Source: an uncultured bacterium (GTDB lineage Bacteria; Patescibacteriota; JACMRA01). Taken from it: a DNA stretch of 64,000 nucleotides. Numbering within the stretch: the stretch's first letter is position 1; each line of letters opens with the position of its first letter. Shown here one piece after another: positions 49,186 to 51,871 of this stretch. Location of the stretch: contig OY969926.1 in NCBI GenBank assembly GCA_963704645.1, positions 672,001-736,000 of the forward strand, in the 5' to 3' direction. Made by a program: the position numbers and the translations under genes. The notes beneath the pieces are model-generated. The model was not told where the DNA came from, did not search any database, and worked only from the letters and a program-made list of their open reading frames with translations.

Positions 49186-49265
49186 ACTTGGAATGCGCCT
49201 GCTTTGAATTTAGCTTGAAATTTAAAACATTTGACTGAATATAAATCTTAATTATAGCTATATGT

Positions 49266-50495
49266 ATGAACTATCCAGCAGATAAAATAAGAAACATTGC
49301 TATTATTGCACACGTTGACCATGGTAAAACTACTTTAATGGACGGTCTTATTCGTCAGACACTTGAAATTAGAAATGTAGAAAGCCTTGGAGATTTAATT
49401 ATGGATTCCATGGATCAGGAGCACGAACGTGGAATTACAATTAAAGCTAAAAACGCTAGTATTTATTATAAAGAATACAAATTAAACATTGTAGATACCC
49501 CTGGTCACGCCGATTTTGGTGGAGAAGTAGAAAGAGGACTTAGAATGGTAGACGGTGTTGTTTTGCTTGTAGATGCACAAGAAGGTCCAATGCCTCAAAC
49601 TAAGTTTGTACTTAAAAAAGCTATTCACCTTGGTTTAAAAGTTGTAGTAATTGTAAACAAAGTAGACAAGCCTGCAGCTGATCCTAAAAAAGCTTTGTCT
49701 AAAGTTGAAGATTTGTTCCTAGATTTGGGTGCCTCTGACGAACAAATGAATTTTCCAATTGTTTATGCTAGCGGTGTACAAGGTAAAGCTGGTAAATCTC
49801 CAGATAAATTAGAAGATAACCTATTTGGTTTATTAGATGTAATAATTGATAATGTCCCAGCTCCAACAGTGGCTCATCAAGATGTAACCGACGTTAATCC
49901 ACTTCAAATTATGGCTTTGGCTTTAAGCTATGATAACTTTAAGGGTAAAATTGCTGCTGGTAAAATTCTTTCTGGTAAAATTACTAAGAACATGCCAATT
50001 TCAGTTATTAAAGAAGATAGTACTGTAAAAGGAAGAGTTACAAGTCTACTTGTTTTTGATGGACTTAATATTAAAGAAATTGAAGAGGCTTCAGCTGGTG
50101 AAATTGTTATGGTTGCAGGTGTTGATACAATTCAAATTGGTGATACAATTACAACTGCAGAATTCAACCAGGCTCTTCCAAGAATTAAAGTTGACGAACC
50201 TACAATTAGAATGACTTTTGGCGTAAATACTTCACCTTTTGCTGGAAAAGAAGGAAAACTTGGAACTTCCAGACAAATTAGAGAAAGACTTTACAAAGAG
50301 TTAGAAACTAACGTAGCTTTACGTGTTTCCGACCATCCAGAATCTGCAGACAAATTTGTAGTTTCCGGTAGGGGTGAGCTTCATCTTGCTGTTTTAATTG
50401 AAACCATGAGAAGGGAAGGTTTTGAACTTGAAGTTTCCCGTCCTGAAGTTATTATGAAAACTAAGGAAGAGGTAGAAGCTATGGAAGCAGCGTAG
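49266..50495 (+). CDS. typA: TypA/BipA GTPase, N-terminal half (G domain, domains II and III)
   Basis: RNIAIIAHVDHGKTT, DTPGHADFGGEVER, NKVD, GRGELHLAVLIETMRREG; ends VSRPEVIMKTKEEVEAMEAA*. Confidence 0.95.
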   Translation: MNYPADKIRNIAIIAHVDHGKTTLMDGLIRQTLEIRNVESLGDLIMDSMDQEHERGITIKAKNASIYYKEYKLNIVDTPGHADFGGEVERGLRMVDGVVLLVDAQEGPMPQTKFVLKKAIHLGLKVVVIVNKVDKPAADPKKALSKVEDLFLDLGASDEQMNFPIVYASGVQGKAGKSPDKLEDNLFGLLDVIIDNVPAPTVAHQDVTDVNPLQIMALALSYDNFKGKIAAGKILSGKITKNMPISVIKEDSTVKGRVTSLLVFDGLNIKEIEEASAGEIVMVAGVDTIQIGDTITTAEFNQALPRIKVDEPTIRMTFGVNTSPFAGKEGKLGTSRQIRERLYKELETNVALRVSDHPESADKFVVSGRGELHLAVLIETMRREGFELEVSRPEVIMKTKEEVEAMEAA

Positions 50496-50511
50496 AAAAA
50501 CTTCATGTAAA

Positions 50512-50535
50512 AAGAAAAGCCCCAGAAATGGGGTT
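50512..50535 (-). terminator. Terminator between typA-N and the convergent orphan gene
   Basis: Reverse complement AACCCCA-TTTC-TGGGGCTTTTCTTTT; similar to the tRNA-Arg terminator. Confidence 0.7.
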
Positions 50536-50543
50536 ATATTTAA

Positions 50544-51038
50544 TTAAAATAATGGTGAAAAATCTAAAGATTCTTGTTGATAGCAATATACCTTATTCGG
50601 TAATTTGTGAAAATCAATGGTAGGGTCTTCGCCAACTAGTCTTATATCTGGGACAAAGATAATAGTTTTTTCCAGCTCAATTAATACTCCGTACCTTGTA
50701 ATGAAACTGCTCTCCGACTCAGCTGTTTGGGGAGCTTTTAATAATGTAGAGCTCCAAGCAACAACTGTTTTATCTTTACTATTGTGTGTGGCAAAAAAGT
50801 CTATATATTTTACATTTCCAATTTTTGCCAATCCCATGATTGCATTGTATTCTGGGTGAATAGAATTTCTATGGTGTCTAATGATATTCATTATACTTAA
50901 AATTCTATCTTGAGCGAATACAAGCATGTGGTAATCTTTTGATAAAACAATATCCTTACTTGCTGCGCTATTTATATATATAAGATCTAGCTGTCCATCT
51001 GTTAACTCACTTTGCCAATCTATTTTAATGTGGCTCAT
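50544..51038 (-). CDS. Orphan protein inserted between the two typA halves
   Basis: 164-aa open ORF with GGAG SD, own terminator and TTGCCA promoter. Confidence 0.65.
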   Translation of the reverse strand: MSHIKIDWQSELTDGQLDLIYINSAASKDIVLSKDYHMLVFAQDRILSIMNIIRHHRNSIHPEYNAIMGLAKIGNVKYIDFFATHNSKDKTVVAWSSTLLKAPQTAESESSFITRYGVLIELEKTIIFVPDIRLVGEDPTIDFHKLPNKVYCYQQESLDFSPLF

Positions 51039-51076
51039 TGATTTCTCCAAATGATAATCAAATTTGTTCGAATAAT

Positions 51077-51100
51077 GGAGATGGCAAGCATCTCCGCTAC
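51077..51100 (-). repeat. GTAG-type REP-like hairpin
   Basis: Reverse complement GTAGC-GGAGATG-CTTGC-CATCTCC. Confidence 0.6.
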
Positions 51101-51178
51101 ACTAGAATAATTGTAAATTTTTAGTAGTTTTGGCAAATATTTGACTTGAAATGAAAAAATTGAGTTGATTTATTTAAT

Positions 51179-51814
51179 ATGAGTCAGATGTATGAACCTT
51201 TTGAATTAGTAGAAATAGACGTACCTTTAGATTACCAAGGCGTTGTTCTACAAGAGCTTGGCAAACGAAGTGCCGAGATTTTACAAATTAACCCAAACGA
51301 GTCTGGAACCGAAATTCATTTTGAGGCTAAAATGGCCACACGTGCTTTAATTGGTTTAAAAAGTTATCTTTTAACTTCCACTAAAGGAACCGTAGTTATT
51401 AACTCTGTATTCGATGAATATAAGCCAACAATTCAATTAACCGTAACAAAAGATCACGGTAGCTTAATTTCTATGGAAAGCGGCACTACAATGGCTTATT
51501 CCTTAAATAATGCCCAAGAACGTGGAACATTGTTCATAGGCGCCGCTGTAGACGTTTACGCAGGTATGGTTATTGGCGAAACTTCTAAAAATGAAGATTT
51601 GGAATTGAACCCAACTAAAGGTAAGCAGTTAAGCAACGTTCGTTCTAAAAGTAGTGATGACGCTTTAACCTTAACTCCACCAAGAGAAATGGGTCTTGAA
51701 AATGCTTTAGAATATATTGGAGACGACGAACTTGTAGAGGTAACTCCAATCAATATTCGTATTAGAAAAAAGTATTTAGATCCTAACGACAGAAAGAGGA
51801 ACAAAGCTAGGTAG
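51179..51814 (+). CDS. typA: TypA/BipA GTPase, C-terminal half (domain V and CTD)
   Basis: EPFELVEIDVP, RALIG, QERGTLFI, YAGMVIGE, KQLSNVR, DELVEVTP..IRIRK. Confidence 0.95.
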   Translation: MSQMYEPFELVEIDVPLDYQGVVLQELGKRSAEILQINPNESGTEIHFEAKMATRALIGLKSYLLTSTKGTVVINSVFDEYKPTIQLTVTKDHGSLISMESGTTMAYSLNNAQERGTLFIGAAVDVYAGMVIGETSKNEDLELNPTKGKQLSNVRSKSSDDALTLTPPREMGLENALEYIGDDELVEVTPINIRIRKKYLDPNDRKRNKAR

Positions 51815-51871
51815 TAAGACTTAATTTAGTATAGCATTGGCGACCATTTTGGTCGTTTTTTTTATTCCAGA

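Follow-up and report, generated by a model that had tools for sequence, protein, structure and literature searches.

Translational GTPases of the EF-G family are textbook examples of single-chain machines, working on the ribosome by movements of their domains relative to one another. Protein genes split without inteins, with dispersed halves, are known from Nanoarchaeum equitans. Here we describe a gene for an EF-G-family GTPase, typA (also named bipA), that consists of two terminated open reading frames (ORFs) at positions 49266–51814 of a 64,000-nt stretch of DNA from an uncultured bacterium (GTDB lineage Bacteria; Patescibacteriota; JACMRA01). This stretch, analyzed at its full length and hereafter called the window, corresponds to positions 672,001 to 736,000 of the forward strand of contig OY969926.1 (assembly GCA_963704645.1). 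The closest described counterpart is Escherichia coli TypA/BipA (PDB 4ZCI, 5A9V and 8EWH; family model TIGR01394), whose five domains recur in unchanged order when the two window ORFs are read in succession. The available text of PMC4543647 places the E. coli domain limits at 1–202 (I), 203–302 (II), 303–385 (III), 386–482 (V) and 483–607 (C-terminal domain, CTD), and describes two superdomains, I+II and III+V+CTD. Compared with this protein, the window typA comprises two terminated genes, is cut between domains III and V (the III|V cut), and carries extra residues at both cut ends.

We argue that typA has, in all likelihood, undergone a fixed and selected fission, whereby two polypeptides encoded by separately initiated genes, one of 409 aa (G domain, II and III) and one of 211 aa (V and CTD), would form a BipA-like ribosome-binding GTPase. 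This reading builds on the anatomy of the locus, its distribution and the purifying selection on both halves in a genome with no intact copy; from these we infer that the halves are transcribed separately, associate physically and act on the ribosome. The split is, moreover, probably one case of a lineage-wide habit in which cuts always fall at the linker between the G domain and domain II (G|II), the III|V linker, or both.

Two complementary halves of TypA

As assigned with TIGR01394 and Pfam, the N-half (49266–50495, + strand, 409 aa) consists of the G domain, domain II and domain III followed by a tail of 7–12 residues (..KTKEEVEAMEAA before the stop), such that the C-terminus of the ORF reads ...VSRPEVIMKTKEEVEAMEAA. 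The C-half (51179–51814, + strand, 211 aa), assigned in the same way, consists of domain V and the CTD and begins MSQMYEPFELVEIDVP, with the head MSQMY preceding EPFE. These ends and starts, which an earlier note on this DNA had described, match the ORF list exactly. Against the NCBIfam profile TIGR01394, residues 8–402 of the N-half cover model positions 1–390 (E 9.3e-167, 555.8 bits) and residues 3–207 of the C-half cover positions 391–594 (E 2.5e-71, 240.7 bits), so that the two matches are exactly complementary and, as the earlier note had claimed, the split is clean, with no TypA sequence lost or duplicated. Each half on its own misses the curated cut-off of 757.3 bits; summed, the halves score 796.5 bits. 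The Pfam families GTP_EFTU, GTP_EFTU_D2 and EFG_III are found in the N-half, and EFG_C and BipA_C (E 1.2e-45) in the C-half, and the domain content and order of TypA/BipA are complete only when both ORFs are taken together. The GTPase motifs AHVDHGKT, DTPGH and NKVD are present, with G1, G3 and G4 (H16–T23, D77–H81 and N131–D134) invariant in a 15-row class alignment. Judged by domain content and motifs, the two ORFs together make up a TypA/BipA, encoded not as a single polypeptide but with a TAG stop at 50493–50495 and, after 683 bp of spacer, a second ATG at 51179.

Alignment to the E. coli BipA structures (PDB 4ZCI and 5A9V; E 4e-120 for the N-half and about 2e-45 for the C-half), combined with the E. 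coli domain limits, maps the cut to the III–V linker. By this position and these limits, the cut lies inside the C-terminal superdomain, away from the hinge that joins it to I+II. The earlier proposal that a ribosome-binding module had been separated from a GTPase module does not agree with this geometry, given that the N-half comprises the G domain, II and III. Because the cut falls in a linker inside a compact superdomain, a large interface would be left to hold the halves together.

No further TypA was found in the window's own genome, a single contig of 1,272,640 bp in which the remaining matches are EF-G, EF-Tu, IF-2 and LepA pieces; the intact typA elsewhere that the earlier note had named as counting against a functional split is thus missing from this contig. 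A misassembly or sequencing error could also create an apparent split, and the sole public DNA run that carries the locus yields five short contig pieces, none of which extends across the spacer or junction. Nevertheless, the probability of such an artefact appears close to negligible, given that the genome is a single closed-looking contig, that the 683-bp spacer carries a gene of its own, and that the same cut recurs in other genomes, assembled independently, as well as in about 25 protein clusters from metagenomes.

Another explanation is that the halves are rejoined after expression, by a split intein, a group I or II intron or trans-splicing. In the available text of PMC2677866, such 'fractured genes' have a free-standing endonuclease gene, and two typA halves flanking an ORF resemble that layout. 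Even so, rejoining seems extremely unlikely here. The residues that do not belong to TypA number only 7–12 on the N side and 2–5 on the C side, too few to accommodate intein fragments; searches with Pfam, NCBIfam and PHROG detected no Hint or intein family and, in the spacer ORF, no endonuclease family; and the pieces in relatives lie on other contigs or strands. As for introns, Rfam at gathering thresholds reported only two tRNAs in the window, and a permissive scan of 50300–51350 gave three chance-level hits (E at least 0.17). The reading of the earlier note, that neither intein nor intron is present, thus holds for both the window and the spacer.

Distribution, selection and origin of split typA

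The class survey comprised 27 species genomes (the order is the same set, and the family the same set minus one genome), including the window's own genome, G000, and that of a sister species in the same genus, G001. In this set, typA is a single frame in 14 genomes and split in 11, and in the other two (G003 and G006) the matches stop at contig ends. The III|V cut alone occurs in G000, G001, G002 and G019, and the G|II cut alone in G014; both cuts, resulting in three pieces, occur in G012, G023 and G024, as well as in G016, G022 and G041, where two of the three pieces are visible. Every expected piece is present in 8 of the 11 split genomes, with one missing in each of G016, G022 and G041, which are 64–78% complete. 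All split pieces are complete ORFs, each with its own start and stop. Only in the window's genus (G000 and G001) do the pieces lie next to each other; 6.3 kb and seven ORFs separate them in G019, and in G002, G012, G023 and G024, they are located on different contigs. The halves would, then, behave as independent genes that drifted kilobases or contigs apart in related genera. Because the neighbors of typA are barely conserved in the class, even beside intact genes, synteny is uninformative as to whether the gene was split in place. The earlier note had pointed to relatives as the place to look for a conserved split, and split typA was found in 11 of the 27 genomes, the window's own included, the same cut recurring in other genera with different spacers or unlinked pieces. 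Separately, a TypA match (347–594) in G006 (G006:C12:399-1145), near a contig end, contains two in-frame TGA codons, which sequencing error, decay or a recoding oddity could explain.

Beyond the class, no two complementary TypA pieces at E ≤ 1e-60 were detected in 143 sampled genomes of other classes of the phylum, and single partial matches were seen in four (G103, G154, G098 and G132). A collection of 5.8 billion proteins contains about 25 clusters of stand-alone C-halves of 208–242 aa that start MS...[LMQP][YF]EP, all at least 60% identical to the window C-half, the weaker matches being ordinary contig-end fragments.

The cut ends share recognizable features: N-side tails of the form KT.EE(V/L)E.. 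and C pieces with the same MS...[LMQP][YF]EP start, an aromatic residue before EP being present in only 8 of 120 full-length relatives. The acidic tail and the hydrophobic and aromatic residues just before EP, derived in the split forms, are possible anchors at the cut ends. The new G|II ends of TypA in G012, G016, G022, G023 and G024 (three pieces) and in G014 (loci L038–L047, L035–L037 and L033–L034) carry 20–70 extra residues, for example tails of the form ..AEFAPE.IE.. and heads of the form MTD..KK.LQNLGIY..., which could be docking peptides. In other lineages, we also observed TypA fragments of about 295 aa (P0019, P0030, P0037, P0047, P0052 and P0059) that start M(T/I)FGVNTSPF, at the beginning of domain III; one of these is encoded on a 23.8-kb contig, and they may reflect either a cut at II|III or genes called from an internal Met.

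Comparison of the window genome with its sister species yielded approximate ratios of nonsynonymous to synonymous divergence (dN/dS) of 0.080 for the N-half (dN 0.073, dS 0.92) and 0.020 for the C-half (dN 0.052, dS 2.6), so that the selection estimate suggested in the earlier note is available for each half. In 13 piece comparisons between other pairs of split species, the nine with finite dS gave dN/dS of 0.04–0.16, and four were dS-saturated. Both typA halves are under strong purifying selection. The ratio of TypA divergence to the divergence of RpoB and LepA is 0.85–0.91 in two-piece species and 0.72–0.98 in species with intact TypA, a comparison that is descriptive only, kin not being independent.

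The sequence immediately upstream of each half is conserved as well. G000 and G001 differ very little over about 50 nt before the N-half ATG (block 49228–49265, + strand, with TTGACT at 49231–49236), and the sequence beyond is not alignable; they are likewise nearly identical over about 45 nt before the C-half (block 51126–51178, + strand, with TTGACT at 51141–51146), although elsewhere the spacer has diverged and synonymous sites are almost saturated. Conservation of these blocks amid diverged surroundings argues for a selected regulatory element before each half. The block upstream of the N-half is probably its promoter or leader, and that upstream of the C-half probably a promoter or leader of its own. 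With respect to the earlier suggestion that the C-half has its own ATG and promoter, the ATG, the TTGACT and a conserved block are in place, but a clear -10 box is not found and promoter-like hits remain at the level of shuffled sequence. A promoter motif common to both halves was considered and rejected: ATTTGACTNGAA occurs once in the window, and the N-half has ATTTGACTGAA, without the extra base.

These data bear directly on the possibility that typA is a decaying pseudogene whose halves are unused. Such a fate could be imagined because BipA is described as dispensable in model bacteria under standard growth, at least in the available text of the sources, and because a TypA match at E ≤ 1e-60 is missing from 25 of 151 genomes in the phylum sample. 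Decay is nonetheless very unlikely in view of dN/dS values of 0.02–0.08, frames that are intact in 11 species, invariant GTPase motifs, conserved upstream blocks and a normal evolutionary rate. With pieces that have their own starts and stops, conservation across species and purifying selection, the locus displays the characteristics of a natural fission.

We also evaluated the halves as a predicted complex, using class alignments for both chains and three runs. The interaction prediction score from aligned errors (ipSAE) was 0.70 (0.70–0.71 across runs), compared with 0.01 for the best control, with contact agreement of at least 93% and partner pLDDT (predicted local distance difference test) of at least 82. 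The mark that the halves reach in this way is attained by 58 of 80 solved complexes and by 2 of 110 mismatched pairs. The predicted interface joins N-half residues 310–403 (domain III and the start of the tail) to C-half residues 2–7, 53–84 and 173–200. This prediction indicates that a BipA-like interface is retained, rather than binding itself. According to the available text of PMC4543647, III+V+CTD of E. coli BipA forms, when isolated, a stable unit that can be crystallized, and structures of this fragment have been deposited (PDB 4ZCK and 3E3X). Contact area may substitute for a covalent link, an idea that fits both a cut inside a compact superdomain and the stability of that fragment.

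The predicted interface is also relevant to an alternative in which both halves are kept but do not form one factor, such that, for example, V+CTD would act alone on the ribosome and G+II+III would be a separate GTPase. Such subfunctionalization would be compatible with the unlinked pieces of several genomes, which show no sign of being co-transcribed. We consider it improbable, given that all pieces are co-retained in 8 of the 11 split genomes, the three misses falling in genomes that are 64–78% complete, that the interface residues are BipA-like with a confident predicted complex, and that neither half shows accelerated evolution.

Several observations weigh against the interpretation of typA as a selected fission into two functional, assembling halves. 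The calibration counts for the ipSAE mark hold only roughly for a prediction made with class alignments for both chains. Further, the score may reflect memory because single-chain BipA structures have been solved (4ZCI, 5A9V and 8EWH), so that, of the structural test proposed in the earlier note, the result itself is positive, but the solved single chains could account for it. The dN/dS ratios are approximate because dS is high (0.9 and 2.6 for the G000/G001 pair), and three-piece species evolve slightly faster (divergence ratio 0.89–1.01). No clear -10 box or Shine-Dalgarno sequence was found before the C-half, and promoter-like (sigma-70-like) hits in the region number 12, against 11.5 expected from shuffles. 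No public RNA runs carrying the typA locus were found. Finally, some loss of function might be tolerable, as BipA is dispensable in model bacteria. Still, the absence of an intact copy, the same cut in other genera, dN/dS of 0.08 and 0.02, the conserved upstream blocks and the predicted complex together favor the view, already taken in the earlier note, that TypA is kept as two separate polypeptides.

To address the number of fission events, we built a tree of RpoB and LepA from 26 genomes, leaving out G004, which had only 92 filled columns. Species with the III|V cut fall in at least four places in this tree, beside species with intact TypA: G012, for example, groups with G010, G007 and G021 (97/98 support), and G002 and G019 group with G011 (92/93). 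Constraining the III|V-split species to one clade costs 97.9 log-likelihood units (approximately unbiased (AU) test, p 7.4e-5, RpoB and LepA), whereas in a TypA gene tree built without the junction columns, one clade is rejected only marginally (p 0.043); in these comparisons, the backbone support is weak and the III|V-split group was defined by the trait, not prior to seeing the trees. The III|V cut may have arisen in several parallel fissions that converged on similar ends, or split alleles may have been transferred from one lineage to another; a single origin followed by many re-fusions seems the least likely.

Some single-chain TypA proteins of the class might illuminate the route. Whereas the usual III–V linker has 9 residues (72 of 96 full-length hits with a recognizable linker), P0145/P0146 and P0132 have linkers of 23 residues and P0153 one of 15. 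These long linkers start FKTK.E.E.. and end ..[VL]F before EPFE, resembling the tail and head of the split form placed end to end. Such proteins may be precursors of fission in which the linker has expanded, or else split genes that have fused again.

Contents of the spacer

The spacer between the halves (50496–51178, 683 bp) contains the elements that the earlier note had listed. A terminator-like hairpin (50518–50535, both strands; consensus match only) lies between the convergent N-half and a spacer ORF (50544–51050, - strand) of 168 aa from a TTG at 51050 or 164 aa from an ATG at 51038, the latter with GGAG 7 nt upstream. Further along is an element resembling a repetitive extragenic palindromic (REP) sequence (51077–51100, - strand), and a second terminator-like hairpin, found by a consensus scan, follows the C-half (51839–51857, + strand).

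The spacer ORF is an orphan: it was assigned to no family of Pfam, NCBIfam or PHROG, its sole match in the 5.8-billion-protein collection is to itself, and it was found, with the protein as the query, in 1 of the 26 family genomes, its own, where it occurs once. Its AlphaFold model has a pLDDT of 35.5. A hint of Imm50 was discarded (rank 9; best atlas feature score 0.84, below the usable level). The G001 spacer contains an opposite-strand ORF of 124 aa with 24% identity to the orphan over 99 residues (pairwise E 1e-7), and other split lineages have different typA spacers from which the orphan is missing. The orphan cassette is probably a fast-evolving, genus-restricted gene. Its restriction to the genus, its 24% counterpart in the sister species and its absence from other split lineages identify it as a passenger and not the cause of the split, contrary to the earlier suggestion that the cassette had split typA.

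The REP-like element consists of GTAG followed by a GGAGATG..CATCTCC hairpin. A genome scan returned 46 hits to this family, with some loci counted twice, corresponding to about 35 other loci besides the spacer copy; most hits share the stem GG(G/C)GAT/GGAGATG. The spacer element thus combines GTAG, a hairpin and repetition around the genome, as REP sequences do. This copy is absent from the aligned G001 spacer, and both the orphan ORF and the REP hairpin would be later occupants of the spacer.

Split LepA and comparison with known split genes

LepA, a paralogous EF-G-family GTPase, is in pieces too. In the window's genome, a 214-aa G-domain ORF (G000:C1:1158074-1158712, - strand; locus L050 2084–2725) matches positions 1–184 of the LepA model, and a 406-aa ORF spanning domain II to the CTD (G000:C1:942254-943471, + strand; locus L049 1758–2975) matches positions 190–594, the two lying about 215 kb apart. 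The G|II break (model 184–190) is present in lepA of all 27 class genomes, none of which has a single-frame lepA, and the C-side pieces start uniformly M(L)(K/Q)ALIFDS; this uniform start and the fixation in 27 of 27 genomes indicate one old event. LepA is cut again at III|V (near 376–392) in G007, G021, G010 and G012, four genomes that form a supported clade, and the new III|V ends carry 25–45 extra residues. In G010 (G010:C15:100-2500, locus L147), the third LepA piece (378–593) lies upstream of the second (187–385) on the same strand, so that the order of pieces is permuted. Nearly all of the 143 genomes sampled outside the class encode LepA in a single frame. Two genomes of other families have a LepA piece that begins at about 190 in a frame of 406–434 aa (G145:C11:13646-14857 and G075:C18:9822-11030), which may represent independent G|II fissions.

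Among the other genes surveyed, EF-G is a single frame in 23 of the 27 class genomes, unmatched in two and truncated at contig ends in two (G041 and G010), and no EF-G split was demonstrated in this set. The two EF-G matches in G010 (G010:C7:1-1479, positions 197–689, and G010:C21:2-634, positions 1–199) are cut short by contig ends that coincide exactly with the G|II boundary, which may reflect an assembly break or a third split paralog. RpoB, SecA, IF-2 and LeuRS are intact in G000. AlaRS (alaS) in this genome is in at least three dispersed pieces (G000:C1, 1109308–1110186, 545110–545568 and 542441–542884, corresponding to model positions 2–245, 237–372 and 552–694), and for PolA, the 5'-nuclease gene is separate from the polymerase gene. 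Separate 5'-nuclease and polymerase genes are common in bacteria.

Taken with the typA data, these sequence comparisons suggest that TypA and LepA, normally single chains, probably work here as assembled pieces. A broader proposal, to which we assign about even chances, is that the class runs its accessory EF-G-family GTPases, LepA and TypA, as non-covalent multi-subunit factors with recurrent cuts inside both superdomains, the III|V cut having arisen multiple times or spread, in connection with a linker-expansion intermediate and anchor residues. If true, separately synthesized modules can come together into a translational GTPase, whether on the ribosome or away from it, and the lineage offers a natural experiment on how such assembly evolves. 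Split TypA and LepA under selection would show which covalent links are dispensable: G|II and III|V qualify, but the superdomain hinge apparently does not. For biochemistry and cryo-EM, the lineage supplies naturally split versions that are ready to use. The occurrence of the same cut in two paralogs, together with long-linker single chains, makes the route to fission directly testable. In practical terms, surveys of bipA and lepA presence based on full-length models will undercount both genes in Patescibacteria.

We found no report in the literature of natural fission of TypA, LepA or other EF-G-family GTPases, although supplementary gene tables could hold cases; the available text of PMC12641178 and PMC4342817 does not mention split TypA or LepA. 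One preprint that surfaced as a candidate report of split BipA (bioRxiv 10.64898/2026.05.13.725050) had matched 'bipartition', not BipA.

The described systems closest to this locus resemble it only in part. With the 'fractured genes', as presented in the available text of PMC2677866, it shares a host gene in two same-strand halves with a small unrelated ORF between them, but differs from those genes in having no intein fragments, endonuclease family or extein junction led by Cys, Ser or Thr, and in a spacer ORF that is on the opposite strand and genus-specific. LepA/EF4 of the same class is likewise an EF-G-family GTPase in pieces, with the homologous G|II cut and, in four genomes, the III|V cut; unlike lepA fission, which is fixed in all 27 genomes, typA fission is patchy. 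As in N. equitans, informational multi-domain proteins are encoded by separate ORFs cut at domain boundaries, with unlinked halves, in a very small genome, in which alaS, too, is dispersed in at least three pieces. Unlike N. equitans, the host is a bacterium of the Patescibacteria, EF-G-family GTPases are among the affected genes, and the same linkers are cut in two paralogs.

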